Virus record (IMG/VR): IMGVR_UViG_3300025072_000003
Direction: 5' to 3' (one strand)
Source: an uncultured virus (IMG/VR IMGVR_UViG_3300025072_000003)
Taxonomy: Duplodnaviria; Heunggongvirae; Uroviricota; Caudoviricetes
Length of the DNA: 64,000 bases
The position numbers were made by a program, and so were the translations under genes. Position 1 is the stretch's first letter. Every line of letters starts with the position of its first letter. Shown here one piece after another: positions 7,818 to 50,539 of the stretch. The notes under the pieces were generated by a model. That model searched no databases. It had not been told where the DNA came from and was given only the letters and a program-made list of their open reading frames with translations.

Positions 7818-7909
7818 CGTCGCGTCTCCAGTGAGAGGGGGTTGATAACGTCTTACAATACGCTATTGACCGAAACCGAACCATCTGACAACTAATTATA
7901 AATTTCCCC

Positions 7910-8437
7910 CTAATCCACGACGGTAAGAGTTTTGCCGTCGAGCCTAATTTGATGGATGGAATCGACCGCATAATCCCGAACTATAATCTCCTTTTCCGTT
8001 TCCTGCCTCTTTGACTTGCTTCTCGCCAGCAGCCACGGATTTATTGTTTCGTCGTCGTGAATCGTTCCATCTTGCCCGCTATACTGGTGCGACAAACTGC
8101 GTTCGACCTTTAATTCGAGATAATGTTTCCCCTTGTGTTCAACGAGTGGCGTAATAGTTCCATCCTCGCGGCTTAATCGTTGCCCCCACTTTCGAGCATG
8201 CGCGGTGAAGTGTTCGCCGTTCCCTTCCCGTTCCCGTTGAGCATTAACGGCGTTTTCATAGCGCCAGTTCATCATTCCGTTGACGTGCGAAGTTTTAATT
8301 ACGTCGCCAATGTACGGGTTGGGTTGCCCGTCTAACTTCTTTCGGAATTTTGGTTCAGTTTTTGCAATAATGCTAACCACACTTGCGCCACGTCGAGTCA
8401 AAAGAGTGGCAATCAATTCGTTTCGAGTGATAGTCAT
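7910..8437 (-). CDS. hypothetical phage protein (cassette)
   Basis: Fills the space between elements 7866 and 8486; GGAGA RBS. Confidence 0.85.
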   Translation of the reverse strand: MTITRNELIATLLTRRGASVVSIIAKTEPKFRKKLDGQPNPYIGDVIKTSHVNGMMNWRYENAVNAQREREGNGEHFTAHARKWGQRLSREDGTITPLVEHKGKHYLELKVERSLSHQYSGQDGTIHDDETINPWLLARSKSKRQETEKEIIVRDYAVDSIHQIRLDGKTLTVVD

Positions 8438-8515
8438 TAGAAGAAGTCTCCGGTGAGGTGGTTGGTTGCGTCTTACAATACGCTATTGACCGAAACAGAA
8501 CTATCTGACAACTAA

Positions 8516-8797
8516 TTATAAAAAGCAGGAAAGTGTTTGCCCAAAATGCGGGGGGTATTCTTCATCTACGTCAACATCGTGAGGTCCGATTGTCAACCCG
8601 CAGCCCAGCAACCTCTCGCGCCCGTCACTCCAACCGTTGAGAGGGTAAGCACGCCAACCGCCTTTGTCGCCCTCTAATGGCACTAGCTTGACACGCTCGC
8701 CAATACTTAGCATCATACCAGTGTCGTCCAACTTAATTGTTTCGACCATTGTGCCGTAGAAGTCCATCGACTCGCCTAGATTGCAAAATTGGGACAT
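8516..8797 (-). CDS. hypothetical protein (cassette)
   Basis: Between elements 8486 and 8838; GAGG RBS. Confidence 0.75.
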   Translation of the reverse strand: MSQFCNLGESMDFYGTMVETIKLDDTGMMLSIGERVKLVPLEGDKGGWRAYPLNGWSDGRERLLGCGLTIGPHDVDVDEEYPPHFGQTLSCFL

Positions 8798-8864
8798 TGT
8801 ATCGCCTCTCGTTGGTGGTGGTTGCTACAATAGGCTATTGACCGAAACCATTCTATCTGACAAA

Positions 8865-9029
8865 CTAATTATAAATTAATTTGCCGTGTTCATCGCAAGG
8901 CTTACCGGATTGTCGCTTGCCCTCTTGTCGTCGTCGCTTGCTACTCATGCTCTTGAGGGTTTCGGTCCTCTCGTAGCGACCGCGACCGCCATTGCTGCCC
9001 CCCATACCCTTCTTAACTTTTACAGCCAT
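8865..9029 (-). CDS. small basic protein, 54 aa (below ORF-track cutoff)
   Basis: Translated by hand MAVKVKKGMGGSNGGRGRYERTETLKSMSSKRRRQEGKRQ...; GAGG RBS; between elements. Confidence 0.65.
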   Translation of the reverse strand: MAVKVKKGMGGSNGGRGRYERTETLKSMSSKRRRQEGKRQSGKPCDEHGKLIYN

Positions 9030-9102
9030 TGTTTTTTCCTCGCGTTGTGTGGTTGGTTTACAATACGCTATTGATTGAGAATTGATTTTCTGACAAGCAA
9101 AA

Positions 9103-9459
9103 TTATAAATCGAAGATATTAACCGGACCAGTGCGGGCAGTAACCGACACGGCAGGCGTTAGCGCCACCTCTCCAGATTCTAATGGACCATGATCCTCTA
9201 CGAGGTTAGCAAGCTGCTCTAGCACCTCAGTGGGGCAATCATACGCTTTCGCGCCTGCGAACGGTAACAGCTTATGAAAGCCTTGGTGCCCACCCTTGCC
9301 GTCGCTTACGGTGATGCGACCCGTTTCGGTGTTGACGCGAGCAATCCGATTGTCCGATTGGATTGTAATAAGGTGAGGCTCTGTATTGCTAACGGGGCAG
9401 ACAACAAACTCTTTTGCCTTACGCATGTTGCCGACTTTTGCAGTTAGTTTGCGAAACAT
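9103..9459 (-). CDS. hypothetical protein (cassette)
   Basis: Start re-assigned to MFRKL after GGAGA RBS; the longer track ORF reads through the element. Confidence 0.75.
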   Translation of the reverse strand: MFRKLTAKVGNMRKAKEFVVCPVSNTEPHLITIQSDNRIARVNTETGRITVSDGKGGHQGFHKLLPFAGAKAYDCPTEVLEQLANLVEDHGPLESGEVALTPAVSVTARTGPVNIFDL

Positions 9460-9538
9460 TGTTTTTCTCCAAGGTGAGGTGATTGGCTTACAATAGGCTA
9501 TTGATCGAAACTGTTCTATCTGACAACAATAATTAAAA

Positions 9539-9901: not shown

Positions 9902-9952
9902 TGTTTTTTCTCCGGTGAGGTGATTGGCTTACAATACGCTATTGACTGAGAA

Positions 9953-10126
9953 TTAAACTTCTGACACCTTTTTTAAATCTTTTTGTCGATGAACCATTGG
10001 CGACCCTTCCAACACGTAATAGGTATACCCATTTTGTATCCATCGGTCAGCAACAACGCCAGTGTATCCAGCTTTGATTTTGCCTCTGCCAGTGTGTTCA
10101 ACGGTTTCGCCAATTGCAAACTGCAT
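9953..10126 (-). CDS. small hypothetical protein, stop inside element
   Basis: Hand translation MQFAIGETVEHTGRG...KKVSEV*; GAGG RBS. Confidence 0.6.
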   Translation of the reverse strand: MQFAIGETVEHTGRGKIKAGYTGVVADRWIQNGYTYYVLEGSPMVHRQKDLKKVSEV

Positions 10127-10216
10127 GTTTTGCCTCTTAGGTAGGTGGTGGTTGCTTACAATACGCTATTGACCGAAACCGTACTATCTGACAATAATAA
10201 TTAAAAAAACCATATA

Positions 10217-10402: not shown

Positions 10403-10475
10403 AGCGTTTTCCTTGTGAGGTGATTGGCTTACAATACGCTATTGACCGAAACCGTCCTATCTGACAATAATAATT

Positions 10476-10509
10476 AAAAAAAACGCCCCCCCGCGAGAGA
10501 GGGCGTTTT
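10476..10509 (-). terminator. Rho-independent terminator
   Basis: AAAACGCCC...GGGCG hairpin followed by a T-run on the - strand, just before element 10442. Confidence 0.65.
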
Positions 10510-11321
10510 AATTAAGCTGCTACGTCAACGTCAACGCTTCGGAATTGCGGGTACGCTTGCAGATACTTACGCGCTTGGCGTTTCGTCGTCTGGGTGCCGT
10601 GACTGTTGCACCACGCCTTAAAAGATGCGTGGTGAATCTGACTTCAACAAGTCAGCAGCGGTCAGTGGGCGAGTGGTAGGGGCTTTGGCCATGTAATTTA
10701 CTCCGAAGGAAAAAGGAAAGTGTTGCAATACGCTATTGATTGAAACTGTTCTATCTGACAACAATATTTAAAAAACCCACAACCAACAGGCTGGGTACAA
10801 TTTACCATGATAGAGAGTAAAAACGCCCAAGGTCAGGGCGTTTTAATTTTTATTTACATGAAAACCTTAACAGCCGTAATTGCTTTTAATAGCGTAACGA
10901 CTGCGACACGATAGCCTATTCCACACTTTGTTGAAATTTGTTTTCGGAAGTATCCCTCAAGGTGGCAAAGCATTTTGTATTCGTTCATCGGCTTCCCTCA
11001 GTTGGTGGTTGGCGGTTGTTACACTTGGCTATTGACTGAGAATTAAACTTCTGACAACTTTTTAGGGCGTTGCGTGGTAAGGGTTTAGAGCAACTCCATG
11101 CTAAAGCCAAAGTGACAGAACCCAGTTTCGTCGCTGAGAGCGTCAGCAACGTCCTCCACATCTTCTACGTCAACCGTCAATTCGGTTGGCAGGTCTATCA
11201 TTTCGCCGTCTGTATCCCATTTAATATCTGTACATTTAATTTTCATAGTTTGTGGTCCTCAGTAGAGAGAGTGATTGTCTTACAATAGGCTATTGACTGA
11301 GAATTGATTATCTGACAATAA

Positions 11322-11906: not shown

Positions 11907-12628
11907 TTTATTTTCTCTAGTGAGGTGGTTGTGTAAAATAAACAGGGGGCGAAGCGGTTCATCTCTTTGCCGCTTAGGGTATTCGTCAACTGCCAGCGGC
12001 AGTCTTCTCGTCCCATTTTCAACCCCTCGTTGTTAGGCTATTGACTGAGAATCAATTCTCTGACAACAATATTTAATTATTGCCTTCTAGCTGTCGAATT
12101 TGCCGTTCTGCGGCACTGGCGCTGCTTGCGTGCTTTCTTAGCACAGCCCTGGCTTCGTCTTTAGTCATGCCGCCCATGATGGTTGCGCCAACATCGGACA
12201 TTTTAAGCGTACTGCGAGCAATCTTAATTTGGTGCTTATCAAAAACATTCATTGTTTTTTCCTCAATAATGAGTTGAGTGATTGTCTTACATTAGGCTAT
12301 TGACTGAGAATCAACCCTCTGACAGACTAATTATAATCTTTCAGAGAATTACGGAATTGACTTCCGCGAGTACGTTGGCGCTTCGTTCGATTATCCATCT
12401 CCCCAGCACTCCCTCTACGTGGCTGGTGTCCCTTGCGCAATGGTTTGGCTTGAATTTCGATAGTGATAGTTTTCGATTTTCTGTTTGTCTTACCCATCGT
12501 GCTTGTCCTCAGTAGAGAGAGTTGATTGCCTTATACTATGGTATTGACTGAGAATCGAATATCTGACACACAAAATAAAAAACCTCGCTGGGCTAAGTAC
12601 CACCATAACCCAGCAAGGTCGAGAATGA

Positions 12629-12919: not shown

Positions 12920-13103
12920 TTTCGCGTCTCTTTGGTTAGGTTTCGTTTAGTAACAATACGCTATTGACTGAGATATGATTTTCTGACAGCTATTTTACCA
13001 TTTCACAAGTCACCTCCTAAGCCTTAGATAGGGCTATATGGGACGTTCCCAAGATATAGCCGTGGATATTCAATATTTCAACGGAAACGCCTGTATCGCC
13101 CTC

Positions 13104-13355: not shown

Positions 13356-13422
13356 TGTCTCGCCTCTTAGGTTGGTGGTGGCTTACAATACGCTATTGAC
13401 TGAGATACGCCTATCTGACAAT

Positions 13423-13647: not shown

Positions 13648-13721
13648 CGCGTTGTCCTCAGTTGGTGGTGGTTGGCTTACAATACGCTATTGACTGAGAT
13701 TTAATTATCTGACAACTAAGT

Positions 13722-14012: not shown

Positions 14013-14081
14013 GTTTTCCTAGTGGGTGGCGATTGTCTTACAATACGCTATTGACTGAGATTTAATTATCTGACAACAAAA

Positions 14082-14531: not shown

Positions 14532-14605
14532 TGTTTTGTCCTCAGGTGGTTGCGACTGTCTTACAATACGCTATTGACCGAGATCGAACTATCTGACAAC
14601 TATTT

Positions 14606-15007
14606 TTACCATTGTCGTTTATTTTCCGTCATTCGTTGCCAATAATCCTCGACAACATAACCAATGTCGGGGTTGGCGGTTGTTCGTTCTTTCAACTCTT
14701 GTACGAACAGAAACCGATGCCTGATACCCTTGTCGAACCCACCGGGGCATTGTGTTGGCACTTTACCAACTTTCATAACCAATATGTAACAGTACATGCC
14801 TTTACAGCTTCCCGTTGCCATGAGAGTGTAACCCTCTGGCACCTTGAAATCGGCACCTAAGTCCCACTTATAGGTTTCAGGTGTCACCGTATACAACCGA
14901 CGAAATTGTGTTCGCCCATTGTAACGATATTGCAGGCACGACCCAGTATTCTCGAATCCGTTGCAGTCAACGCCGATCAGGTCAGTATCTTGCTCAATAG
15001 TAGTCAT
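14606..15007 (-). CDS. hypothetical protein flanked by perfect 73-bp direct repeats
   Basis: Repeats at 14533-14605 and 15009-15081. Confidence 0.8.
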   Translation of the reverse strand: MTTIEQDTDLIGVDCNGFENTGSCLQYRYNGRTQFRRLYTVTPETYKWDLGADFKVPEGYTLMATGSCKGMYCYILVMKVGKVPTQCPGGFDKGIRHRFLFVQELKERTTANPDIGYVVEDYWQRMTENKRQW

Positions 15008-15075
15008 CGTTTTGTCCTCAGGTGGTTGCGACTGTCTTACAATACGCTATTGACCGAGATCGAACTATCTGACAA

Positions 15076-15480: not shown

Positions 15481-15556
15481 TGTTTTTTCCTCAGTTGAGT
15501 GGTGGTTGCTTTACAATACGTTATTGACTGAGATTTAATTATCTGACACACAAAAT

Positions 15557-15589
15557 AAAAAAACCGCCCCCCACTTCAAGGGGCGGTTT
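15557..15589 (-). terminator. Rho-independent terminator
   Basis: CCGCCCC/GGGGCGG stem plus T-run on the - strand, just before element 15524. Confidence 0.75.
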
Positions 15590-15916: not shown

Positions 15917-16122
15917 GGTAAACGTCTCTTTCGTCAAGGGAACAGGGTATTGACCAGATTCGGTCGTTTGTTTTGACCTCACATGGGTCATTGTCTTACA
16001 GTACGCTATTGACCGAGATTTAATTATCTGACAGACAATATAAAGTTTTTCTTATCCTTTTTTTATCGTGCTTGCCAATATGACAAGTGCTAAGAAACAG
16101 GCTAGATTGTATTCTAGTGGTG

Positions 16123-16512: not shown

Positions 16513-16564
16513 TGATTCCTCGTTGGTGTTTGTTGCTTACAATAGGCTATTGACTGAGAATTGA

Positions 16565-16981
16565 TTATCTGACAACTTCTCTTTTAATTTTGTCCAAGTC
16601 AAGATAAACGATATAGCAAGATAATATTTTTCGTTTATCGGTTTTCCTTGGTGCTGTATCGACAACCGTTTTCCCTCTTGCGTCCAACACAACAACATGC
16701 CCTTGCACTTGAATGATGTACCCGCAGGTGATTGCATCGGATAGTTTAGCGAGTGTCGCCCTAGCCCCGCCAACGCTCATTCCTTTGACGTTAGAGCCTC
16801 TTGAGCGTACAGTGTATTTCTTACGAACAGCGTACACAACGTCTTTGATGGTATGCAGGTATCTCGTTTGATGCTGACAACCAAAGTATCTAACAGCAGC
16901 TAGGGCGCAAATATTTTTGTTTGTATTGTGAGGGTTATTGCTTTTGGCACGAGATGTTTTACGGCAGGTGGCTTGAGTCAT
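16565..16981 (-). CDS. hypothetical protein, stop inside element
   Basis: Ends ...VVR* within element 16550. Confidence 0.8.
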   Translation of the reverse strand: MTQATCRKTSRAKSNNPHNTNKNICALAAVRYFGCQHQTRYLHTIKDVVYAVRKKYTVRSRGSNVKGMSVGGARATLAKLSDAITCGYIIQVQGHVVVLDARGKTVVDTAPRKTDKRKILSCYIVYLDLDKIKREVVR

Positions 16982-17035
16982 TGGTTTTGCTCGCTAGTTG
17001 GTGGTTGTTGCTTACAATACGCTATTGACTGAGAT

Positions 17036-17290
17036 TTAATTATCTGACAATCTATTTTTGACATAATGACACATGCCAATTGTTTTAATATCTTCGCCAG
17101 TGAATGTGAACCACTCGCCCCCGCCTAGAAGTCCCTCATTCATTGCGTGGGGGTGTACTCCCTTTAGTTCGCAAAATGCGTCCCAATTGCCGCAAGTTAT
17201 GATTGATTGCGCGGTTAGCTGCACTCTCATCGTATTCATTGTTTTCTCTTTCAACAGTAGGTGGAAACAGGGTTCGCAGAACGGCGACAC
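17036..17290 (-). CDS. hypothetical protein, stop inside element
   Basis: Ends LSDN*; true start probably the internal MNTMRV. Confidence 0.6.
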   Translation of the reverse strand: MSPFCEPCFHLLLKEKTMNTMRVQLTAQSIITCGNWDAFCELKGVHPHAMNEGLLGGGEWFTFTGEDIKTIGMCHYVKNRLSDN

Positions 17291-17771
17291 CCTGGATACC
17301 CTTTTTGCCCTTACAAGATCGCCAAGTATCAGACGATAGGCTTAGTTATCTCCTGGCATGACTTGTCCTCTTGTTGAGTGTTGCGGCGGTTATAATATGC
17401 TATTGACTGAGATTTAATTATCTGACAGGTGTTTAGAAATTTTCTCGCAACAGACGTTCTACCTCTGTATCGTCATTCGCTTTGAGTGCTGCGACGATCC
17501 CTTCGTCATCAAGTGCGATAACAGGTGTAATAAGATGTTTTTCACACAATTCTGCAAATTCATTTTTGGTCATTTAATTTTCCTTAAAAAGCAAAACGAT
17601 AGGAAGCAAGCAGCTTACACGCGAATCAAGCTAAGTGATTCTGTCTCACCCGCACCTCCACGCCTGTGGCATAATAGGAGGATGTAAGGATTGTTGACGT
17701 GTTAGACCTTGCTACTTGCGAGTAGGTCAACTCTTTTTCCTTCGTCTTACAATACGCTATTGACTGAGATT

Positions 17772-18170
17772 TTAATTTCTGACAAATCCAAGTGGATTTT
17801 CTTCAATTACTTTCCTCGCCTTTTTGTAGGCTTGATAATTAGCCCAAACAGCGTTTAAGTCATCGCCGGGGTATTGTGCCATTTTCTTTAACAGCATGAT
17901 AGCTTCACCAGCCATTGTGGGAGTGATGTCGCGGTGCATTGCCTCACCATAGACCACCTGGGTTGGCTTCCTGTAGGTGTCGCCATCTATCCCGATATAG
18001 GGAACCATCATTGAGTTGGACTCTTGCGAGTGTGTTGGCTTTGCCCCTAAACGTGTTAGCAATGCCCTCACAGCATCGGCTGATATACCCAACTTGCGTG
18101 CTGCGCTGAACACGTTTTGCTTGACGTTCTTACCAGCGTTATATTTTCGTCGAAACATCATTCTCTCCAA
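17772..18170 (-). CDS. hypothetical protein, stop inside element
   Basis: Ends VRN*; GGAGA RBS near the internal ATG. Confidence 0.75.
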   Translation of the reverse strand: MERMMFRRKYNAGKNVKQNVFSAARKLGISADAVRALLTRLGAKPTHSQESNSMMVPYIGIDGDTYRKPTQVVYGEAMHRDITPTMAGEAIMLLKKMAQYPGDDLNAVWANYQAYKKARKVIEENPLGFVRN

Positions 18171-18214
18171 GGGGCGTTTTAATTTAACTCTTACAGTACG
18201 CTATTGACTGAAAA

Positions 18215-18562
18215 TTAAACTTCTGACAACTCTTTGTTGTCGTTTACTTGTTTTCGCCACTGTAGTTCCACTGCGTCGGGAATACTCGGAATTTTGGTTC
18301 TGGCGATTATTTTATCATCATGGTCAATTTCAATTACCACATCAATTCCATCAGCAAACGTCAATGCGTTATAATTGTTGTTGGTATCTACAGATTGAAC
18401 CAATCGAGCTAGACCCGTTTTTCTAAGCCAGTCATAGAGAACAGAACGGTTGGGTGCTATCACCCACTTGATTAGGTGATCTGTAGCGTCCGTTCCACCA
18501 TCGAAGCCTTGCAGTGTCAACTCAAAGAATTTCATTTTGCATTTCCTATGTTTAATTAGCAA
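18215..18562 (-). CDS. hypothetical protein, stop inside element
   Basis: Ends LSEV*; true start probably MKFFEL. Confidence 0.75.
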   Translation of the reverse strand: MLIKHRKCKMKFFELTLQGFDGGTDATDHLIKWVIAPNRSVLYDWLRKTGLARLVQSVDTNNNYNALTFADGIDVVIEIDHDDKIIARTKIPSIPDAVELQWRKQVNDNKELSEV

Positions 18563-18655
18563 GGTGGCGACCTAACCACTCCATCTACCCCACTCATCGC
18601 AGGGCGACTCGGAGAAGATGTCCACCACCTTGCTCATTGTGTTATTGCGTGAGAA

Positions 18656-19024
18656 TTAAACTTCTGACAAACTAATATCATAAGCATCAAAAATTGTTCG
18701 CCAGTATTCGGTAACTGGATTAGATTCCTGGCACGCTTCCCTTACATACTCGACACCATCGGTGGTAAGGTCATTTTCGAGCCACACGCCGATTTTCCAA
18801 TCATCAGCAACTTCGTGAGCATTTATGCAATCTTCACCGCAACCGCAGTGCTGGGGGCAATCTGATTCGCCAATGTCACTACACAGCTTAGGGTATTCGC
18901 CAGAGTCATAGGAAGTTTGGTCATCAATGTCGGCGGGTGCGTTACCAGCGTCGTTGATTTCCTGGCAGATTGCTTCGCCACATTCCTTGCAGTAAACGTC
19001 AGCATCGTAAATATAAACTTCCAT
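18656..19024 (-). CDS. acidic Cys-containing hypothetical protein
   Basis: YDADVYCKECG...CPQHCGC; ends LSEV* in element. Confidence 0.8.
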   Translation of the reverse strand: MEVYIYDADVYCKECGEAICQEINDAGNAPADIDDQTSYDSGEYPKLCSDIGESDCPQHCGCGEDCINAHEVADDWKIGVWLENDLTTDGVEYVREACQESNPVTEYWRTIFDAYDISLSEV

Positions 19025-19081
19025 TTTGTTTCCTCAGGTTGGTTGGGTTGGTCTTACACGATGCTATTGACTGAGATTTAA

Positions 19082-19339
19082 TTATCTGACAGGTATTCCA
19101 ACAAATTCCAACGCACTATCGGTAACTGTAACAATTTCGTGACAGTACGTTCTATCCTTGCATACGCCAGCTTTGAATGGTTCAAGGTCAGTGAAATTAT
19201 CTACTTTCACATCGCCAGTAACGGAAACCACAAACTGGTCATTTATCGGGACAATTCGCTCAACGCTTTCCCCACGGTGGTCAACTAAGCGAATTAGAAT
19301 GGCAAGTGCTTCGGCGTCGTGTACTTTGAAATGAGTCAT
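19082..19339 (-). CDS. hypothetical protein (cassette)
   Basis: GGAGA RBS; stop inside element. Confidence 0.7.
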   Translation of the reverse strand: MTHFKVHDAEALAILIRLVDHRGESVERIVPINDQFVVSVTGDVKVDNFTDLEPFKAGVCKDRTYCHEIVTVTDSALEFVGIPVR

Positions 19340-19398
19340 TGAATGGTTTCTCCTTACAGTACGCTATTGACTGAGATTTAATTATCTGACAACTATCT

Positions 19399-19758: not shown

Positions 19759-19759
19759 C

Positions 19760-20026: not shown

Positions 20027-20079
20027 TTTGGTTTCTCCAAGGGCGTTTTAATTTAACTAATACGCTATTGACTGAGATT

Positions 20080-20358
20080 CTAATTTCTGACACATGTATC
20101 AGAAATTAAAACGCCCGCCTGAGTGATAGAGTGAATCTCCTTTGCTTCCAAGATTGTGGTCAGTACGCACCAATAAGCGTCACCAAAATTGAAAAAGCAA
20201 TAGAATGTATCGCCACAGTATGGCTCACCCATAGCGAAGCCATTTAGGAAGTAGGCTTCTGGGGGCAAACTGCCAAGAGCTTCATAGTATTCGTCCTCAG
20301 TACACTTGGCAGCACCGCAAGACTTAGCACGTTCAAAGCAACTTTTTGTTTCTGGCAT
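20080..20358 (-). CDS. hypothetical phage protein
   Basis: EYYEALGSLPP...FAMGEP motif; stop inside element. Confidence 0.75.
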   Translation of the reverse strand: MPETKSCFERAKSCGAAKCTEDEYYEALGSLPPEAYFLNGFAMGEPYCGDTFYCFFNFGDAYWCVLTTILEAKEIHSITQAGVLISDTCVRN

Positions 20359-20506
20359 GGCGTTTTCTCCAAAGGGTTGATTGTCTTACAGTACGCTATT
20401 GACTGAGATTTAATTATCTGACAACCAAATTAAAACATTCCGCTAATAATAGTGCCAGCCATTAGCGAACCAAACAAAAGTATAAAAATTAAAGTGTTTT
20501 TCATTG

Positions 20507-20803: not shown

Positions 20804-20966
20804 TTTAGTCCTCAGGTGGTTGGTGTTTCGTTCAATACGCTATTGACTGAGATTTAATTATCTGACAACAAAATTAAAAACTTTTGGGCAGGGACGGCAG
20901 GGTACAATTTACCCTGATAACTAAGAGCAATTAAATTAAAATTATAAATTTTAATTTAACGCCCAG

Positions 20967-21039
20967 TGACACGGACGGGAATCGAACCCGCGTAGGCGAG
21001 ATTGAAAGTCTCGCTGCAAAACCAGCATCGCACCGCGCC
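20967..21039 (-). tRNA. tRNA-Glu (TTC)
   Basis: Acceptor GGCGCGG/CCGTGTC; anticodon arm CGAGA-CTTTCAA-TCTCG; T arm GCGGG-TTCGATT-CCCGT; no encoded CCA. Confidence 0.85.
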
Positions 21040-21235: not shown

Positions 21236-21274
21236 TCATGTTTCGCTATTGACTGAGAATTAAACTTCTGACAA

Positions 21275-21661: not shown

Positions 21662-21735
21662 AGTATGTTTTCTCCGTTAGGGGGTTGCTTGCACAAACTG
21701 CTATTGACTGAGAATTAAACTTCTGACAACTAAAT

Positions 21736-21963: not shown

Positions 21964-22040
21964 CGTGTTTTCTCCAGAGTGAGTGATTGTTTGTGTTACA
22001 ATTGGTTATTGACTGAGATTTAATTATCTGACAACTAAAT

Positions 22041-22484: not shown

Positions 22485-22595
22485 AGGTTTGATTTACAAT
22501 TGGCTATTGACTGAGATTTAATTATCTGACAACCAATTTAAAAAAAACGTCCGACCATACTCGGGGAAGCATGATCGGACTTAACCGCACTACTA

Positions 22596-24281: not shown

Positions 24282-24366
24282 TTTTCCCCGTTGAAGTCAA
24301 GTAGTAGTAGTAACTTACAATACGCTATTGATCGAGAATTGATTGTCTGACAACATTCTCAAAAAA

Positions 24367-24579: not shown

Positions 24580-25004
24580 TCTCGGCTACAATCGGTTATT
24601 GATCGAAAGCAAACTATCTGACAACCAATTTAAAAGTTTTCAAAACCAAAAGCATAGGGTACAATTTAGCCTAATATCATCCTACATTGTACCCAACCGC
24701 TACGCAAAAAGCAATTACCTATCAAGGTATTGCTTACACTCAAGTTCACTATCGAAAGCGGCAACGTAACGACCCATCTTGAGCGCTTCCCATTGCCATT
24801 CTACCCACTTGTATATGAACCATTCGCCAGTATGTGTGTTTCGGACGATTGCGTGATTCTTATAAGGAGTCATATCAGTTAGCCTTAAAAATTAAAACGC
24901 CCCAACCAGAGAAGAGGTTGAAAACCCTGGTTGGGACGCGAAGCAAAGAAACGAAGAAACGAACTTAACAATACGCTATTGACTGAGAATCAACAATCTG
25001 ACAA

Positions 25005-25373: not shown

Positions 25374-25425
25374 TCTCCAAAGGGGCGTTTTAATTTAACT
25401 CTTACAATACGCTATTGACTGAGAA

Positions 25426-25875: not shown

Positions 25876-25995
25876 TGCATATCCTCTTGAGTTAAATTAA
25901 AACGCCCCCAGTGCGCCATGGTACTGGACTTACTTTCGCTGGACGGCGTTAGTGGCTTACAATAGGCTATTGACTGAGAATTAAACTTCTGACAA

Positions 25996-34653: not shown

Positions 34654-34769
34654 TGTTCTTTATCCTTTTGGTTATGATTGGTTGTTGACTGAGATTGGTT
34701 TATCTGACAGATATTTTTTTTATAATTTTCAGCCACAAAAGGTCTAGATAGTCTTAAAGGAGATTCCCC

Positions 34770-36059: not shown

Positions 36060-36293
36060 GTTAGGTTATTGCCTGAGAATTGGTTATCTGACAATTACTT
36101 CTTGTTTCTTTGCCGTTTTCGTTCATTATATGCGTCTGTTTCCTTTTGCCTACGCTCTTTGCCTTTGGAAACACATTTGCCCCAACTTAGACTTTTCTTC
36201 GCTTCCTTCTTTTTTCCGAATCCAAACACAGCTTTCCTTGATCTTTGGTTAAAATTGCTAGTCCGTATCTGCAATGTATGGGCGTTTTAATTT

Positions 36294-36752: not shown

Positions 36753-37173
36753 TATAATTTCCTTTGGGGTTATTGACTGAGAATTGATTATCTGACAATT
36801 ATTTTACCAATGATCTGGCGCATCTCCGTTCACAATCAATCCGATCTTGCAAGCTACCCAATATAATACAACGGTAAGAAGTCCCACAAAAACTCCCCTC
36901 ATTGGATCATTGTACAAAACCCAATGAATCACTACGCTGCCTAATAACAAGCCAATGTAAAATCCAATCTTATTGAACATTTTTTATCCTTTTGATTAAT
37001 TATTGTCGAACAGCGACGACACAGACGACCATGCAAGCAAAAACAGAATCATAGCCATCACTATTAGTATGCCTAAAACATTAAAGCAGAAATTTTTAAT
37101 CTTTGAAATCATCGTAAGCACTCCATTGCTTAGTTAATTGTAGGTTGACCGAGAATTGATTATCTGACAATTA

Positions 37174-38252: not shown

Positions 38253-38312
38253 TATTATTGTCTCCTGGGGTTATGATTGGTTGTTGACTGAGAATTGATT
38301 GTCTGACAATTA

Positions 38313-39622: not shown

Positions 39623-40149
39623 GTTATTTCCTTTGTACTTTCTGATTGTATGTTGACTGAGAATGGATTATCTGACAATTATTATTCACATTTTGTCAGA
39701 GTGCGAGTTTTAAAAGTTTTCACCCACTCTGTTTTAAACCAGTTTAACCATGTGGGTTTCCACACTCCAATAAATGATTCTACAGCCAACACGTCACCAC
39801 AGTTAGGGCAATTAGCCTCATCAAGAGCAGAGTTGTAGTGCTTGCATTTATCGCAGCATAAAACAGTTTCAATTCTCAAAATCATTCCTCCTGGTCGTTT
39901 TAATTAGTGTGTCCCAAGTTAATTGCCTTACGTCCATGCCAATAGAGGTTAACGTATCTGGCACTTTCCCGCAGCATCGCGTAAGTTATGGTAGATTCCG
40001 CTTTTCATACACACCAAAAAAAAATTTAGCGACGTGCGACTTACCTCGACAGCCAAATCGTTCATATGATACGTTTAGCCTTTTGTCGATCCCATCTGTG
40101 CGGGAGTTCTTATGCTCTTTTCGCAACTGTCTTCCGCTAAATTAAAAGA

Positions 40150-40236: not shown

Positions 40237-40289
40237 TTAATTCATTATGTTTGGCTATTGATCGAGAATTGATTATCTGACAACTATCT

Positions 40290-41026: not shown

Positions 41027-41077
41027 TGTGTTTCCTCTGTTGGGGTTAGTTGGTTATGATTGTAGGTTGATTGAGAA

Positions 41078-41407
41078 TTAGTTTTCTGACAACTGTTTTT
41101 CCCAAAAAGCAAAACCGCCGTCTGTGTAAGGGTCAGCACTTACTTCATCCGTACTAACAACTACTCCATTCTCGAACATAAGATCACGAACAGCCTCTTC
41201 TAGCTCAGTTGCATCAGCAAACCTTGGCGTATTCCCTTCCCATTCCCCTGATTTCTGGGAGTCATTTTGCAATGTAACTCGATATGCCCACCCTTCTGGT
41301 TCGCATTGATTATCCCAGTAAATTTCTGCTTTTGTTGGCAAATCCTTTTTGTCAAGTGATTGGAATGTTAAATTAACTATGTTCAACGCTTTTAGGCATG
41401 GGTTCAT
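41078..41407 (-). CDS. hypothetical protein, stop inside element
   Basis: Ends LSEN*. Confidence 0.7.
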   Translation of the reverse strand: MNPCLKALNIVNLTFQSLDKKDLPTKAEIYWDNQCEPEGWAYRVTLQNDSQKSGEWEGNTPRFADATELEEAVRDLMFENGVVVSTDEVSADPYTDGGFAFWEKQLSEN

Positions 41408-42080: not shown

Positions 42081-42124
42081 ATCTCCTGGGAATGCTTTGG
42101 TTATGATTGTATGTTGATTGAGAA

Positions 42125-43126
42125 TTAGTTTTCTGACAAATATTTTTCATCAATCTCTGGTGGATCTGCAATATAAATGCTGTTTTTGAAATAACTTCTA
42201 ACAGTTTGCACTTTTCCGTATGGAGTAAAACACAATTCGCCTTTATAGTCGAACACACGATGAATCCCAACCTTGTCAACATCCAAAAAGTTTCCGTTGA
42301 CAATCTCTTTGTCGAACTTATCATAGACAGGGGTGCGTCCACTGAACTGCCCAACTAAATTTGTCCAATCTTGAATTTCCGTGACAATTGTGCCATCTTC
42401 AACATCATGAGATTTCCCGCCAAACAATCTTGTCATTCTCGCGTCGTATTTGCTGATCGTTTTTTCATACACAGCGCCTTCTGCATTTTTCTGCTTTCCA
42501 TAAACCCAAAGAGTGTAACACTCAATGGAGAGAGGCAAGGCTCCTACGACCTTAGCCGATTCCTGCAACGCTTCTTCTAAACTGTTTAAATATAATATTC
42601 TTGTGCTTGGTCTTGAATAACCAACCTCTTCTTCTATTTCTTTTTTTAATTCTTCATCAAAATTCTTAATGAATTCGTCCAATTCTTTTTGTGGACCATC
42701 CCAAATCTCTTCTGGGATTTCTTTGCTTTCGCCTATTCTTTCCGCAACCCTTTCGTACTCTTTCTCGTTTTCAAAAAGGTGGTTCCACTGTCTTTTAGTT
42801 AAATAGAATGTGCATCGTTTGTCATCTTCATCCATAGCATCAATCACAACACTGTACCTTGTGTCAGCACTAGGATCGAAATCCGTCATTGCTTCAAGTT
42901 TTTGTGGACCAAAACCCTGGTTTGGAGCATGTTCAGATTGATCATCGTTCAACTTGGCATTGTCCGGCGCATGTTGGTAGCATCGTTCATGCCATGCTTT
43001 CACGCTGTTGTGATCTTCCGATCCACCATAACCATCATATTCTTGTACGTTTCCGTTCAATCTTACAAGTTCTCTCTCGCACAATTCGTGACCACAACCC
43101 TTGCAGATGTATGAAGACATTCCCAT
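42125..43126 (-). CDS. hypothetical protein, 333 aa, stop inside element
   Basis: AGGA RBS; N-terminal CKGC...HERC; ends LSEN*. Confidence 0.85.
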   Translation of the reverse strand: MGMSSYICKGCGHELCERELVRLNGNVQEYDGYGGSEDHNSVKAWHERCYQHAPDNAKLNDDQSEHAPNQGFGPQKLEAMTDFDPSADTRYSVVIDAMDEDDKRCTFYLTKRQWNHLFENEKEYERVAERIGESKEIPEEIWDGPQKELDEFIKNFDEELKKEIEEEVGYSRPSTRILYLNSLEEALQESAKVVGALPLSIECYTLWVYGKQKNAEGAVYEKTISKYDARMTRLFGGKSHDVEDGTIVTEIQDWTNLVGQFSGRTPVYDKFDKEIVNGNFLDVDKVGIHRVFDYKGELCFTPYGKVQTVRSYFKNSIYIADPPEIDEKYLSEN

Positions 43127-43764: not shown

Positions 43765-44323
43765 TTGTCTCCTGTTTTCTGTTGGCTATAACAGGAGGTT
43801 GATTGAGAATTGATTATCTGACAAAGATTATGAATTATAATGCAGAATCAAAAGAATTAACGTCCCAGCAATGCATAGTGCATATTCAATACGATTACCA
43901 TGTGGGGGGGGACATAGCGATCTCGATTCTTTCTAGTTCCTGGGAATTCTTGACTTTCGTAATTTGTTGTCAGTCCAATTTGATTTAGCTTATCATTTTG
44001 AACATTCTTCCACACATTGCCAGTATTTGTTGGCAAATCTTCTGGTGTCCAAGTTGGAGGATCATTTTGTTTAGGCTCCCAATCTTTCAAAGATTGAAGA
44101 CAACCATCTACAAATGTACTGCAACTATTAATTGCAAAAAGCACTCCAAGCAACAACGCATTAAACATAAGTTTCTCCTAATTATTATTATTTAACTCGA
44201 AACACATCCATATTCTCGTTTGAACCACATATAAGCCACTCTTCATCAACCGAAGTTATGCCATCAAAGTGTCCGTTTTCATTGTACACAAACTCATATG
44301 TCTAACGAGCAAAACCATATTTT

Positions 44324-45054: not shown

Positions 45055-45085
45055 AATTTTCTACTAAGCCTATATCTTTGGTAAG

Positions 45086-45159
45086 CGCCCCTGTCAGGAC
45101 TCGAACCTGAAACCTATTGATTAGAAGTCAATTGCTCTTTCCAATTGAGCTACAGGGGC
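45086..45159 (-). tRNA. tRNA-Arg (TCT)
   Basis: GCCCCTG/CAGGGGC acceptor; D arm GCTC-AATTGGAAA-GAGC; anticodon ATTGA-CTTCTAA-TCAAT; T arm TCAGG-TTCGAGT-CCTGA. Confidence 0.95.
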
Positions 45160-45231
45160 AAATTAGAGGGGAAGCCCCTCAAGTTGTTATGTTTGTAGGT
45201 TGATTGAGAATTGATTATCTGACAAACAATC

Positions 45232-47979: not shown

Positions 47980-48037
47980 TGTTTTTGTTTCCTTTGTGTT
48001 ATGCTTGTAGGTTGCCCGAGATTGAACTTTCTGACAA

Positions 48038-48571
48038 CTATTTCACAACTTCCAATTCATCAACTTTGCAATCATAACTTTGAGAACCAAAATGAACGTA
48101 ATAACAGTCTTCGTCTCCCTTTGCCTCTCCGCTTGCAAAGTCTTCGCTTCTTCCTCTCACAATTCCTTCTGAACCAGCAGGGACCACTTCGCATCCATCA
48201 TCAATTCCATTCTCGGCATCGTCGCTTTTCAGTTCAACCAACGCTCGCACTTTGTCGCCTGCCTTAATTGGTTGGCACTCATATCCTTCAATTGAAATTT
48301 GGATATTTTTAACATCCCCATACCTCTCTTCCACAATTTTTTTCAATTCCTCTTTTGTGGGATATTCGCCCTCTACATAGATCAATCCAACATAAGCATA
48401 AACCGATACAACAGATAGATCTACCTTAGGTCCAGCAGGGTATGGAGCATTATAAATCACCCCAATTTCATCACACTTAATTGCCGTGTTCAATTCCTTG
48501 AAAGATTCTTGATGATTGTCAAACTCATGACAATCACCGGCATCAACGATTTTTGGTAGTTTAAATTTCAT
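48038..48571 (-). CDS. hypothetical protein
   Basis: C-terminal SH3-like GDKVRA...EGIV...YYVHF; TAG flush with element. Confidence 0.75.
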   Translation of the reverse strand: MKFKLPKIVDAGDCHEFDNHQESFKELNTAIKCDEIGVIYNAPYPAGPKVDLSVVSVYAYVGLIYVEGEYPTKEELKKIVEERYGDVKNIQISIEGYECQPIKAGDKVRALVELKSDDAENGIDDGCEVVPAGSEGIVRGRSEDFASGEAKGDEDCYYVHFGSQSYDCKVDELEVVK

Positions 48572-48646
48572 TTTAGTATCCTAAATCTGTTAAAATTTCA
48601 TCAATAAGCTGACATTCAGCACGCCTGACGCCAAGCTAGTTTCCAT

Positions 48647-49114
48647 TTATTTCGCATCCCACATTTCCCGCTCTGCTTCATACTGTTCTGCTTCACCTTC
48701 GCCAGTGAACCATCCATTAACTTCGTCACTGAAAATAGCTTTGATCAATGCCTCTGCCACCTGATAGTGACCATGAAACACATCCATTGGAACATCTTCA
48801 AATTCTTCTGGATGAGAACGACTGGATGGGTGGTGCTTGTATCCTGTCAATTGCCATGCAGCAACTTCTCTGTGTTTGGCAATTGACTTAACTGTAGTTT
48901 CACTGAGATCAATTGAGTAGCCACTATTGACAATAACTACTTGTAGGTCTTCAAATCCGCGATTTTCAACTTGTGTAACATAATTGGCATTTGGGAAAAA
49001 AGATTTAAGGCTTTTTTCCAAAAGAGACACCAAAGCATCAACATGCTTTTCGCCAAAAGCAACCTTATCTTCGTGCGACAGTGTAGTTACTGAAAATCGT
49101 CGTTCGTTCATCAT
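48647..49114 (-). CDS. hypothetical protein
   Basis: GGAGA RBS after element 49147. Confidence 0.75.
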   Translation of the reverse strand: MMNERRFSVTTLSHEDKVAFGEKHVDALVSLLEKSLKSFFPNANYVTQVENRGFEDLQVVIVNSGYSIDLSETTVKSIAKHREVAAWQLTGYKHHPSSRSHPEEFEDVPMDVFHGHYQVAEALIKAIFSDEVNGWFTGEGEAEQYEAEREMWDAK

Positions 49115-49992
49115 TGTCTCCTGTTGTGTTGGGTTATACAGGGATGTTGATTGAGAATTGATTATCTGACAACTATTTCATCTTTTTAATCTCATCCAAC
49201 AAAGCATTCTCTTCCTCTTTCAAGACAGCCAATTTCACAGCAATTTCCTTCATTCTTGGATCTGCGTACTCTTTGTCTGTGGGAAGTGTTAAACCACGCT
49301 CAAATATGACTCGCTTGGCAACTTCGTTGGATATAATTGTCATTAAATCTCCCGAATTCCCGAGTATAGTTGTCTAGGGTTTAGAGATGGCCATTTCAAA
49401 CACTCTGAATGCGTGCCTTGGAAAACAACCGCTGGCTCTTTTTCAAGTCTGACAACATAAATTTCATGCGTTTTAAGCCCTCTTAATCTTTCGATCTCCG
49501 CACATAGATCGTAGATTAGACGGTGAGGCTTGTCATTCCATTCGTCTGCTTGTGGTCCAATTCCACTGGGCGCGTTTCGGTAGTCTTCTATGTTAAGCAT
49601 TTTTCTTTTTCCCTTCAACAGATGCCAACAACTTTCTTCGTCTACGCCTACGACAATCATCGTCGTTTGCTAGTTCTGATGACTGACATGCGCCATACAA
49701 AACGACAGCAACGATTAACGAAATAACTATGCCACAAAATATTTCAAATGGAGTCATGTTATCCAATTCCAAATAATGACAAAACGTATAGCCCTATCGA
49801 ACTTACGATAAAGCTTACACAAAAAAGGCTGAAAGCCCACACTATCTTTTCTTTGTTCATAGTTGTATGTTGCCTGAGATTGAGTTATCTGACATAAAAA
49901 CATAAAAAATAACGCCCCGCCAGCACAGAAAAGCCGCTCGTCGCGTTTGAAAAATTTAGAACGAGGCTTTTGTGTACTGACGAGGGCGCTTA

Positions 49993-50289
49993 TTAGTCGT
50001 CAAGCTTGACCACTGATCCGTCTTCTTTGACGTGGTATCTTTTTGATGGGGCGGGATATGTTGGTTTAATTTTTCTGCCATTTAGTCTTTTCATATGCGT
50101 GCAGTTCCTCATGCCTCCAGCTTGCACGTCATAAACTCGTCCTTTGCACTGGAACAAAGATCTTGCCTCACTTGTTGGAGAAGCATTTTTCATTCTGCCT
50201 CCACAATTATCGCACCTATGAATTCCAATTAAACTCAAGAGCCAATTTTTCATTTTAATCCTCTTTTGTGAACACCAAAAATCCACCAT
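49993..50289 (-). CDS. small Cys-containing protein
   Basis: CDNC...C...C; start probably MKNWLL. Confidence 0.6.
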   Translation of the reverse strand: MVDFWCSQKRIKMKNWLLSLIGIHRCDNCGGRMKNASPTSEARSLFQCKGRVYDVQAGGMRNCTHMKRLNGRKIKPTYPAPSKRYHVKEDGSVVKLDD

Positions 50290-50539
50290 AAGTGATTTGG
50301 GTTAATCCTCCAACCAGAATCCATAGATTGGGGGTATTGACTATCCAATGTGTGCCAGCTATAGCAAATGTAAAAATCGAACAACGTATAATCTGCCAAC
50401 CTATCCTGGCTTTTTCGGCACGCCTAATCTTTCCTCGATATACGCACCATCGCATAGGTATTCGCTTCATGCTTTACCTTTCGTCTTTTGGGTTATGATT
50501 GTAAGTTGACTGAGAATTAGTTATCTGACAACAAATCAC

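Follow-up and report, generated by a model that had tools for sequence, protein, structure and literature searches.

Sixty-nine near-identical, probably promoter-bearing elements ahead of small orphan genes in an uncultured marine phage: a likeness to the PeSL cassettes of T4-type phages

The closest known system to the one considered here is that of the promoter-early stem-loop (PeSL) cassettes, which have been reported from the T4-type phages RB49/phi1, T4/PST and KVP40/nt-1 (PMC2839356; PMC4122927; what is said of PeSLs here and below follows the available portions of these two reports). PeSLs are intergenic, lie directly upstream of orphan genes and number 52 in phi1 and 51 in RB49 (PMC2839356, Arbiol et al., 2010); each combines a prior stop codon in an AT-rich stretch with a Shine-Dalgarno motif and a start codon at its 3' end (PMC2839356). 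Conservation among PeSLs reaches up to ~100 bp. Where RB49 and phi1 differ by the insertion or deletion (indel) of a single gene, a PeSL stands on either side, and the difference was put down to recombination over this ~100 bp of similarity (PMC2839356; PMC4122927, Comeau et al., 2014); the loss or swapping of genes via repeated promoter copies is already known in T4-like phages. Here we describe a comparable arrangement in a 64,000-nucleotide stretch from an uncultured virus of the Caudoviricetes (IMG/VR IMGVR_UViG_3300025072_000003; hereafter the window), in which a 26-bp element, TTGTCAGA-N8-TYTCRRTCAA, recurs 69 times ahead of small genes. The original prediction, made from the letters of the window alone, had taken this array for an integron-like accessory-gene system built around an exchange site that might also act as a promoter, and had mentioned PeSLs among comparable elements. 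In our assessment the element is probably the core of a ~50-bp phage-specific promoter which, like a PeSL, also serves as a passive substrate for homologous recombination.

The suggested comparison with PeSLs is borne out by the layout, by the block of orphan genes and by repeat-flanked indels. In both systems tens of intergenic motifs stand directly upstream of orphan genes, an AT-rich stretch with an upstream stop codon is followed by a 3' Shine-Dalgarno motif and start codon, and gains or losses of single genes flanked by repeats are ascribed to homologous recombination (here, in a deletion seen in the marine sequencing run X9 and in two further cases). The present array differs in being denser (54 copies in 25 kb), in its much more uniform core (39 bits), and in a second promoter box that does not match the sigma-70 consensus, as PeSL promoters do. 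It also shows no sign of a T4-like phage, since neither Pfam nor PHROGs recovers a T4-type core gene in the 64-kb window.

T7-type class II/III promoters and T4 middle promoters, the latter dependent on sigma appropriation, are phage-specific promoters of phages that bring their own polymerase or sigma factor; those of the T7 type form one continuous block of ~23 bp around the start site. The array shares with both groups its many near-identical, information-rich and co-oriented copies that depart from the host consensus. In contrast to T7-type promoters, however, the present element consists of two conserved parts around a variable centre, the first of them resembling a -35 box, and would better suit a sigma-type reader; no polymerase or factor gene was recognized in the window by Pfam or NCBIfam. 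The stoperators of cluster A mycobacteriophages, which the available portions of two reports describe as short asymmetric repressor sites that stop elongation in temperate phages (PMC9283540, PMC6550527), are likewise found in those accounts as many oriented, asymmetric copies across intergenic gaps. By comparison with stoperators so described, the present site is 26-54 bp long, keeps a fixed register with its leader and start codon and follows terminators, and no repressor or integrase accompanies it in the window.

The element family and the units it heads

When up to two mismatches are allowed, the motif has 69 copies in the window: 55 match exactly, 12 differ at one position and 2 at two. 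The minus strand carries every one of them, within 7866-50531, which confirms the predicted number of co-oriented copies. Chance expectation, under dinucleotide-preserving shuffles of the window, is 0.03, and the count of 69 was reached in 0 of 100 shuffles. A position weight matrix (PWM) built from the 69 copies holds 38.9 bits over 26 nt and scores its own members at 23.6-41.6 bits. A PWM scan had been proposed as a check; run on both strands of the window, it returned these members only, with no other site at or above 12 bits, so the family is sharply bounded and has no decayed copies. The spacing is dense and then sparse, as had been described, with 54 copies at 7.9-32.7 kb and 15 at 34.7-50.5 kb, and the widest gaps match the longest open reading frames (ORFs), which encode a 561-aa UvrD-type helicase and a 462-aa PcfJ-like protein.

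The proposed unit of element, leader, ribosome-binding site (RBS) and ORF or non-coding RNA is also upheld. An ATG-initiated ORF of at least 30 aa starts no more than 60 nt after the element in 58 of the 69 copies (median 40 nt, interquartile range 32-43), and a Shine-Dalgarno-like motif is present in 52 of those 58; the remaining 11 head a tRNA-Arg gene (40 nt away), the tRNA-Glu region, three short RNA-plus-terminator units and several long leaders. Packing is very tight: 48 of 69 copies have the stop codon of a long upstream open frame either no more than 6 nt ahead of the element (32 copies) or within the centre, at positions 11-15 (16 copies); none of the 69 copies lies within an ORF body. 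A run of five T residues occurs within 30 nt upstream of 14 copies (14/69, vs 3.9% of random 30-nt windows), and terminator hairpins of 13-14 pairs with T-runs precede three copies, most having none. The claim that the array consists of unrelated small ORFs was confirmed by an all-against-all blastp search among its 96 ORFs (as with all ORF counts given here, from crude calls of the longest ORFs chosen greedily), which found no pair at E<=1e-3. The elements therefore flank unrelated genes rather than tandem duplicates, and tandem gene duplication was rejected as the source of the repeats, since the cassette ORFs have no paralogues.

Positions 2-8, 17, 19-20 and 24-26 are invariant across all 69 copies. 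The 26 bp of the original prediction stand as a core, but conservation runs wider, on one side into A/T-rich sequence (-14 to -1) and on the other into a second conserved block (positions 27-40), which closes with Y35 (67/69), R36 (68/69), T37, A38 and A39. This block has two regional versions which share those five positions: most copies at 7.9-32 kb read TAGCGTATTGTAAG, and 12 copies at 34.7-50.5 kb begin with C and resemble CMTACAATCATAAC. Element and block keep a fixed register in all copies, and a C/A-rich leader follows position 40. The 8-nt centre does vary, as had been claimed (31 variants among the 69 copies), but not freely, being AT-biased and alike in neighbouring copies. The array splits into regional blocks that differ in G+C and in element sub-type: G+C is ~0.48 at 8-10 kb, 0.42-0.46 up to 32 kb and 0.38-0.41 at 32-50 kb, and the centres pass from TAGnnCGG through TAATTAAA and AGTTTAAT/ATTATAAT to TAATCAAT, with the downstream block shifting too. 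These regional blocks may represent successive expansions or different timing classes.

The inverted repeat that had been described (TTG..AGA/TCT..CAA) exists as an imperfect dyad, but a weak one: 6 of 8 positions are complementary, pairs 4/23 and 6/21 never form, the symmetric halves are 8 bp long and lie 10 rather than 8 bp apart, and a direct repeat TNTCAG at offset 15 describes the arms equally well. Either the partial dyad or the direct repeat, together with many oriented copies in short intergenic gaps, could suit an operator for a phage DNA-binding regulator (stoperator-like, or an activator site), in which case the true promoter would be a minimal signal downstream and the conserved 27-40 block could be the actual core promoter. 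We regard such an operator as distinctly unlikely, given that element and downstream block stand in fixed register and behave as one unit, that the window shows no repressor, integrase or other sign of a temperate phage, and that the copies behind terminators need a promoter where nothing else is conserved. An activator-dependent promoter, moreover, would in practice be a version of the promoter explanation that we favour.

The element shows no hairpin potential, the mean energies of the 26-mers being -1.42 kcal/mol as RNA (vs -1.40 when shuffled) and -0.40 as DNA (vs -0.63). A hairpin or covariation reading of the arms was rejected, because these energies equal those of shuffles and because the variable arm positions, 1, 21 and 22, show no compensation in the opposite arm. 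A scan of Rfam (gathering thresholds, and E<=1) returned two tRNAs only, and no family that fits the element. If the element were instead a processing or protein-binding site at the RNA level, within long polycistronic transcripts, its strict confinement to the coding strand and its fixed distance to start codons would be accounted for. This is nevertheless highly improbable for an element with neither structure nor covariation and with an AT-rich stretch upstream, some copies of which stand right behind terminators, where no transcript would arrive, and which heads a tRNA and terminator-bounded units. Its position ahead of a tRNA and of terminator-ended units of ~55-70 nt is likewise not what would be expected of a translation signal. 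Together, the co-orientation with genes, the fixed RBS distance, the tRNA and small units, the placement after terminators, the AT-rich upstream stretch and the lack of a fold argue for a start signal on double-stranded DNA. The three ORF-free units that run from element to terminator over ~55-70 nt match no Rfam family and are candidate phage small RNAs.

Promoter-like geometry and its candidate reader

The element is very probably a promoter, a role which the original prediction had suggested and which is supported by context, namely co-orientation, distance to the start codon, tRNA and small-RNA units and post-terminator copies. Transcription must restart at the three copies that follow terminator hairpins of 13-14 pairs. 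In the layout that we propose, an AT-rich upstream stretch would lead into TTGTCA(GA) as a -35-type box, with TTGTCA at -35 to -30; a 17-bp spacer would end in the conserved TYTCRRT (-19 to -13), and the invariant CAA would occupy -12 to -10. Transcription would start at position 36, a pyrimidine-purine step 10 nt after the 26-bp element. A start near this position is suggested because the Y35-R36 step is nearly invariant, because an ATG lies exactly there in three copies, and because the homology between the window and a related metagenomic contig (L106) begins at position 39. One of the three ATG codons opens a 98-aa ORF without a Shine-Dalgarno motif (copy 36069-36094), as would be expected of a leaderless message. 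Almost all genes of the 43-kb block, which are small and for the most part orphans, would have such a promoter ahead of them, as would a tRNA and a few small non-coding units.

Judged by its sequence, the element is not a sigma-70 consensus promoter. TTGTCA matches the sigma-70 -35 consensus at 5 of 6 positions and nothing 16-18 bp downstream of it fits a -10 box: -12 to -7 reads CAATAG or CAACMT and the T at -7 is absent, element position 29 being G in 48 copies, T in 11, A in 9 and C in 1. Matches of the sigma-70 type are not clearly enriched in the array (51 vs 36.2 +/- 5.5, 51 vs 46.3 +/- 6.3 and 61 vs 56.6 +/- 7.4 expected), and the scan hit the element in two copies only, with a spacer of 18, so that no match is consistent. 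The geometry would be that of a sigma-factor promoter with a foreign second box, and its reader may be a sigma-like protein encoded by the phage, or an activator that appropriates sigma on the core enzyme of the host; a second box unlike the sigma-70 -10 box, together with ~39 bits, leads us to expect a phage-encoded or phage-modified specificity factor. A T7-type phage RNA polymerase is less likely as the reader, because the conservation is bipartite with a variable centre. No gene for such a reader was recognized among the ORFs of the window, so a phage-encoded one would have to lie outside it.

The element could alternatively be an ordinary early promoter for the unmodified sigma-70 RNA polymerase of the host, again in PeSL fashion, with the odd second box reflecting the promoter preferences of that host, or being a weak -10 box for which the -35 box and the AT-rich element compensate. 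The 5/6 match, the AT-rich stretch upstream and, if the start is at 36, the canonical 17-bp spacing are all in keeping with such a promoter, as are small orphan genes typical of early regions and the finding of PHROG matches in 10 of 104 ORFs. We consider it unlikely, in view of the second box and of the two isolated scan hits, and because 39 bits and seven invariant first-box positions go far beyond what sigma-70 needs. Further, the same lineage has sigma-70-type promoters of conventional form: a second metagenomic contig, L082, carries a textbook TTGACA-17-TATAGT promoter with an AT-rich upstream stretch (535-575), and the window itself has TTGTCA-17-TATAAT at 6882-6910 on the plus strand. 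The host thus appears to use an ordinary consensus, and we favour the element as the mark of a second class of promoters under phage control. A bacterial host is suggested by the strong Shine-Dalgarno motifs, by terminators made of a hairpin and a T-run, and by the promoter in L082. An archaeal TATA-box reading of the AT-rich stretch was set aside. Read in reverse complement, the element can resemble a sigma-70 promoter (TTGACY-18-AATAAT) in antisense direction, but this was rejected as not general, being found in ~9 copies only.

Cassette variants and the basis of exchange

Structural variants were sought by aligning contigs of four independent marine runs (X3, X6, X8 and X9) to 13001-33000. 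Those of X3, X6 and X8 gave long error-free pieces, and those of X9 shorter, mostly error-free pieces at low depth. Run contigs mostly end at elements, which is usual for repeats in short-read assemblies; most contig joints were dismissed as repeat or assembly artefacts, one side being 20-40 nt long, i.e., the repeat itself, and loose ends at elements were likewise disregarded. The best-documented variant is a 500-nt X9 contig (depth 3.1) that joins 14532 to 15009, with sides of 267 and 233 nt and 73 letters common to both, and so lacks one element and one ORF (Table 1). Among all 2346 copy pairs, the one concerned (14574 and 15050) has the longest exact match, at 73 nt, followed by matches of 52 and 42 nt in other pairs; 40 nt or more are shared by no more than 8 pairs. 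That the deletion falls in the longest exact repeat indicates homologous rather than site-specific recombination. In an 819-nt X9 contig (depth 4.1), a 215-bp segment is replaced by ~42 nt with an element like copy 21704, and in L106, which lacks a 108-nt segment, no such gap separates an element from the leader of the gene homologous to ORF 11322-11906, and the gene upstream is unrelated. The comparison with relatives proposed by the original prediction has yielded three differences, all cassette-sized and bordering an element; the best-documented one agrees with homology-dependent recombination between direct repeats. The sample is small and repeat-biased.

Neighbouring copies resemble one another more than random copies do, in the centre (identity 0.686 vs 0.509, with 0 of 2000 permutations as high), in the next 16 nt (0.674 vs 0.566; 0/2000) and in the preceding 12 nt (0.469 vs 0.414; 1/2000). 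We propose that the 69 near-identical direct copies act as passive substrates for homologous recombination, which would delete, insert and swap single cassettes and keep neighbouring copies alike. A new recombination mechanism is not revealed by these data.

The claim of an integron-like system, by contrast, is not borne out, and that of an exchange site stands only in part: gene content does differ at elements, in a manner that appears to be homology-driven and not recombinase-driven. As in integrons, a one-directional array of unrelated small ORFs is separated by a recurring site, and a site-specific core for an integron-like or tyrosine recombinase encoded elsewhere, maybe doubling as a promoter, would agree with the arm-centre-arm layout, with a length (26 bp) in the range of core sites and with cassette-sized differences at the element. 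Yet the element has no attC-type folded palindrome or hairpin, its folding as RNA and DNA equalling that of shuffles, and each cassette has its own signal and leader, with terminators inside the array, whereas integron cassettes are promoterless. The absence of an integrase from the window was confirmed: neither an IntI-type tyrosine recombinase nor any other integrase, recombinase or repressor was found among the ORFs of the 64 kb (59 and 138 ORFs with Pfam, 104 with PHROGs, 109 with NCBIfam). Sites of the lox, FRT or dif kind have an identical 6-8-bp centre, in contrast to the 31 centres and the 8-bp, 6/8-complementary arms 10 bp apart found here. Differing centres block most pairwise exchanges by tyrosine recombinases, and 31 variants would do so in this array. 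With the one solid deletion lying in, and depending on, 73 nt of homology, we hold such a recombinase site to be extremely doubtful. A more far-reaching proposal, in which an undescribed sigma-like factor or polymerase recognizes the ~39-bit bipartite site, the same complex or a recombinase encoded elsewhere catalyses exchange, and the 43-kb block is the phage counterpart of an integron, with promoter and exchange site united in a single element, is very unlikely.

Several observations weigh against a phage-specific, PeSL-like promoter. Promoter function, start site and timing are all read from context; TTGTCA is one mismatch away from the sigma-70 -35 box and, with the AT-rich stretch upstream, is compatible with the host sigma-70 holoenzyme; and the 64-kb window has no recognizable sigma factor, RNA polymerase or activator by Pfam, PHROGs or NCBIfam. 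PeSLs regularly have a stem-loop, whereas T-runs adjoin only the 14 copies noted above and strong hairpins only a few. The variants are few, amounting to contigs at depths 3.1 (the solid one) and 4.1 and one 626-nt piece of a relative, and as Logan contigs break at repeats, breakpoints away from elements are hardly detectable.

One further segment behaves unusually in the run contigs. At 17262-17336, contigs of X6 and X9 match just ~75 nt of the window and then continue into unrelated sequence on both sides, and an extra T after 17316 appears in three runs, at depths up to 38.6. This ~75-nt segment seems to be present in other genomic contexts too.

Surroundings, occurrence and significance

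Few products of the window are recognizable. Pfam matches at E<=1e-3 were obtained for 8 of 59 larger ORFs and PHROGs matches for 10 of 104, and neither a relaxed Pfam scan (138 ORFs) nor an NCBIfam scan (109 ORFs) added anything relevant. Within the array, the helicase and the PcfJ-like protein are the recognizable products; outside it are an HD-domain protein, a family-25 glycosyltransferase, a Thg1-type tRNA-His guanylyltransferase and an HNH endonuclease. The blocks that flank the array, at 52163-64000 on the minus strand and 89-7224 on the plus strand, consist of overlapping or abutting ORFs, carry no element and hold the few recognizable genes (Thg1, glycosyltransferase 25, HNH endonuclease and DUF3228). 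The block on the plus strand is convergent with the array, whose end it meets near 7.2 kb.

Close relatives are scarce in the collections searched. In INPHARED, neither a megablast of 24 kb nor a tblastn search with a 436-aa ORF gave a match, and the helicase is at most 30% identical to its closest proteins. The closest Thg1 proteins (58% and 51% identity) belong to uncultured phages of 635 and 485 kb, which do not have the element, each showing one match at two mismatches, similar to the control. In IMG/VR the pattern was not matched exactly, and close relatives of the proteins were likewise lacking. A scan of bacterial and archaeal genomes matched at least 120 stretches, each a single match, with no array or prophage copy among the matches listed; having no conservation around them, these matches were rejected as chance. 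A scan of metagenomes matched at least 113 stretches, and among the matches listed the genuine ones are L003, L042-45, L067-69, L082 and L106. The first three entries denote three contigs that reproduce sections of the window at 100% identity. The other two, L082 and L106, are short and come from one of those data sets, but do not belong to the window. L082 has one element (301-326), of the second version, before a 58-aa ORF and followed by the sigma-70-type promoter mentioned above, which implies that the lineage has elements outside the window; L106 is 78.5% identical to the start of ORF 11322-11906. Sequence words of the phage occur in 23 marine DNA runs from 18 studies, with at least half of the sampled words in 8 runs. 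A full-text search of the literature for the two arm sequences gave, among the matches listed, unrelated primers only.

Two other repeated features accompany the array. A second repeat, AATTAAAACGCCCC, has 28 copies at up to two mismatches, on both strands and window-wide, against 0.54 expected. When complete, it supplies the A-tract/GC base of hairpins of bidirectional terminators (as at 10476-10513 and 15561-15593). Half-copies occur in leaders between the element and the Shine-Dalgarno motif, and others, which lack a partner arm, immediately follow TAA stop codons; the motif may have been left behind by cassette recombination or may be a second signal. In addition, the minus strand has two hairpins with a common 8-bp stem (CGTAAGTC / GACTTACG) at 28406-28520, with a terminator on one side and element 28380-28405 on the other. 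The non-coding gap there is unusually long, at 190 nt, and run X9 has a depth spike and several loose ends in it.

Table 1. Coordinates of features in the window. Element rows are matches to TTGTCAGA-N8-TYTCRRTCAA; the centre is the N8, and the next 14 are the 14 nt that follow the element.
Feature	Position	Strand	Centre	Next 14	Remark
Whole array	7866..50531	-			69 co-oriented elements, ~96 small ORFs, 2 tRNA genes, several short non-coding units; leftward transcription
Element	7866..7891	-	TGGTTCGG	TAGCGTATTGTAAG	
Element	8486..8511	-	TAGTTCTG	TAGCGTATTGTAAG	
Element	8838..8863	-	TAGAATGG	TAGCCTATTGTAGC	
Element	9071..9096	-	AAATCAAT	TAGCGTATTGTAAA	
Element	9501..9526	-	TAGAACAG	TAGCCTATTGTAAG	
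Element	9942..9967	-	AGTTTAAT	TAGCGTATTGTAAG	
Element	10169..10194	-	TAGTACGG	TAGCGTATTGTAAG	
Element	10442..10467	-	TAGGACGG	TAGCGTATTGTAAG	
Element	10736..10761	-	TAGAACAG	TAGCGTATTGCAAC	
Element	11032..11057	-	AGTTTAAT	TAGCCAAGTGTAAC	
Element	11293..11318	-	TAATCAAT	TAGCCTATTGTAAG	
Element	12041..12066	-	GAATTGAT	TAGCCTAACAACGA	
Element	12300..12325	-	GGGTTGAT	TAGCCTAATGTAAG	
Element	12544..12569	-	TATTCGAT	TACCATAGTATAAG	
Element	12964..12989	-	AAATCATA	TAGCGTATTGTTAC	
Element	13396..13421	-	TAGGCGTA	TAGCGTATTGTAAG	
Element	13690..13715	-	TAATTAAA	TAGCGTATTGTAAG	
Element	14051..14076	-	TAATTAAA	TAGCGTATTGTAAG	
Element	14574..14599	-	TAGTTCGA	TAGCGTATTGTAAG	Within 73-nt exact repeat
Element	15050..15075	-	TAGTTCGA	TAGCGTATTGTAAG	Within 73-nt exact repeat
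Element	15524..15549	-	TAATTAAA	TAACGTATTGTAAA	
Element	16009..16034	-	TAATTAAA	TAGCGTACTGTAAG	
Element	16550..16575	-	TAATCAAT	TAGCCTATTGTAAG	
Element	17025..17050	-	TAATTAAA	TAGCGTATTGTAAG	
Element	17403..17428	-	TAATTAAA	TAGCATATTATAAC	
Element	17760..17785	-	AATTAAAA	TAGCGTATTGTAAG	
Element	18204..18229	-	AGTTTAAT	TAGCGTACTGTAAG	
Element	18645..18670	-	AGTTTAAT	TAACACAATGAGCA	2 mismatches
Element	19067..19092	-	TAATTAAA	TAGCATCGTGTAAG	
Element	19367..19392	-	TAATTAAA	TAGCGTACTGTAAG	
Element	20068..20093	-	AATTAGAA	TAGCGTATTAGTTA	
Element	20399..20424	-	TAATTAAA	TAGCGTACTGTAAG	
Element	20843..20868	-	TAATTAAA	TAGCGTATTGAACG	
Element	21249..21274	-	AGTTTAAT	TAGCGAAACATGAG	Heads tRNA-Glu region
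Element	21704..21729	-	AGTTTAAT	TAGCAGTTTGTGCA	
Element	22009..22034	-	TAATTAAA	TAACCAATTGTAAC	
Element	22507..22532	-	TAATTAAA	TAGCCAATTGTAAA	
Element	24328..24353	-	CAATCAAT	TAGCGTATTGTAAG	Heads UvrD-type helicase gene
Element	24599..24624	-	TAGTTTGC	TAACCGATTGTAGC	
Element	24979..25004	-	TTGTTGAT	TAGCGTATTGTTAA	
Element	25415..25440	-	AGTTTGAT	TAGCGTATTGTAAG	
Element	25970..25995	-	AGTTTAAT	TAGCCTATTGTAAG	
Element	26483..26508	-	AGTTTAAT	TAGCCAATCAATGG	
Element	27187..27212	-	AGTTTAAT	TAACACATTATAAC	
Element	27949..27974	-	AGTTTAAT	TAGCGTATTGTAAC	
Element	28380..28405	-	ATTATAAT	TAGCGTATTGTAAA	
Element	28959..28984	-	ATTATAAT	TAGCGTATTGTAAT	
Element	29352..29377	-	AGTTTAAT	TAGACAATTGTAAG	
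Element	29889..29914	-	AGTTTAAT	TAGGAAACACATGA	
Element	30101..30126	-	AGTTTAAT	TAGTAAATTATAAC	
Element	30995..31020	-	AGTTTAAT	TAGTAAGTTATAAC	
Element	31720..31745	-	ATTATAAT	TAGCGTATTGTAAT	
Element	31985..32010	-	ATTATAAT	TAGCTGGTTGTAAC	
Element	32683..32708	-	AATTGGTA	TGTCAGGGTGTACC	
Element	34685..34710	-	TAAACCAA	CAACCAATCATAAC	
Element	36069..36094	-	TAACCAAT	TAACCTAACATGAG	ATG of 98-aa ORF at position 36
Element	36773..36798	-	TAATCAAT	TAACCCCAAAGGAA	
Element	37145..37170	-	TAATCAAT	CCTACAATTAACTA	
Element	38284..38309	-	CAATCAAT	CAACCAATCATAAC	
Element	39653..39678	-	TAATCCAT	CATACAATCAGAAA	
Element	40258..40283	-	TAATCAAT	TAGCCAAACATAAT	
Element	41067..41092	-	AAACTAAT	CCTACAATCATAAC	
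Element	42114..42139	-	AAACTAAT	CATACAATCATAAC	
Element	43799..43824	-	TAATCAAT	CCTCCTGTTATAGC	
Element	45200..45225	-	TAATCAAT	CCTACAAACATAAC	40 nt upstream of tRNA-Arg
Element	48012..48037	-	AAGTTCAA	CCTACAAGCATAAC	
Element	49147..49172	-	TAATCAAT	CATCCCTGTATAAC	
Element	49870..49895	-	TAACTCAA	CATACAACTATGAA	2 mismatches
Element	50506..50531	-	TAACTAAT	CTTACAATCATAAC	First (most upstream) copy
476-bp unit	14533..15008	-			One element and ORF 14606-15007; missing in 500-nt X9 contig
215-bp segment	17378..17592	-			Element 17403 and 46-aa ORF 17433-17573; replaced by ~42 nt in 819-nt X9 contig
108-nt segment	11933..12040	-			44-aa ORF, between element 12041 and leader of ORF 11322-11906; missing in L106
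tRNA-Arg (TCT)	45085..45159	-			Headed by element
tRNA-Glu (TTC)	20966..21039	-			209 nt downstream of element 21249-21274
Terminator	10480..10509	-			13-pair hairpin and T-run; ends 12 nt upstream of element 10442-10467
Terminator	15561..15589	-			13-pair hairpin and T-run; directly upstream of element 15524-15549
Terminator	22549..22580	-			14-pair hairpin and T-run; after helicase gene, directly upstream of element 22507-22532
Short non-coding unit, candidate small RNA	24900..24978	-			~55 nt after element 24979, then terminator hairpin 24923-24900
Short non-coding unit, candidate small RNA	25901..25969	-			After element 25970; terminator-like hairpin 25917-25901
Short non-coding unit, candidate small RNA	32626..32682	-			After element 32683; terminator-like hairpin 32644-32626
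AATTAAAACGCCCC example	6683-6696				
AATTAAAACGCCCC example	7229-7242				
AATTAAAACGCCCC example	18171-18184				
AATTAAAACGCCCC example	24890-24903				
AATTAAAACGCCCC example	25382-25395				
AATTAAAACGCCCC example	25895-25908				
AATTAAAACGCCCC example	28535-28548				
AATTAAAACGCCCC example	29321-29334				
AATTAAAACGCCCC example	31031-31044				
AATTAAAACGCCCC example	33015-33028				
AATTAAAACGCCCC example	55806-55819				
AATTAAAACGCCCC example	62542-62555				

If transcript mapping confirms the promoter, this array would rank among the densest and most uniform phage promoter arrays (69 copies, ~39 bits), and would point to an as-yet-unseen transcription specificity factor in an uncultured, widespread lineage of marine phages; the pair of promoter and reader might also prove useful as an orthogonal expression system. 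The PeSL principle, by which the copies of an expression signal are at the same time substrates for recombination and so allow orphan genes to move one by one, would be extended beyond T4-like phages and beyond sigma-70 promoters, and the natural deletion of one cassette in a metagenome illustrates that principle here. The main remaining interest lies in the factor that would read a bipartite promoter of 39 bits in this lineage of uncultured marine phages, which recurs in the metagenomes of many studies.

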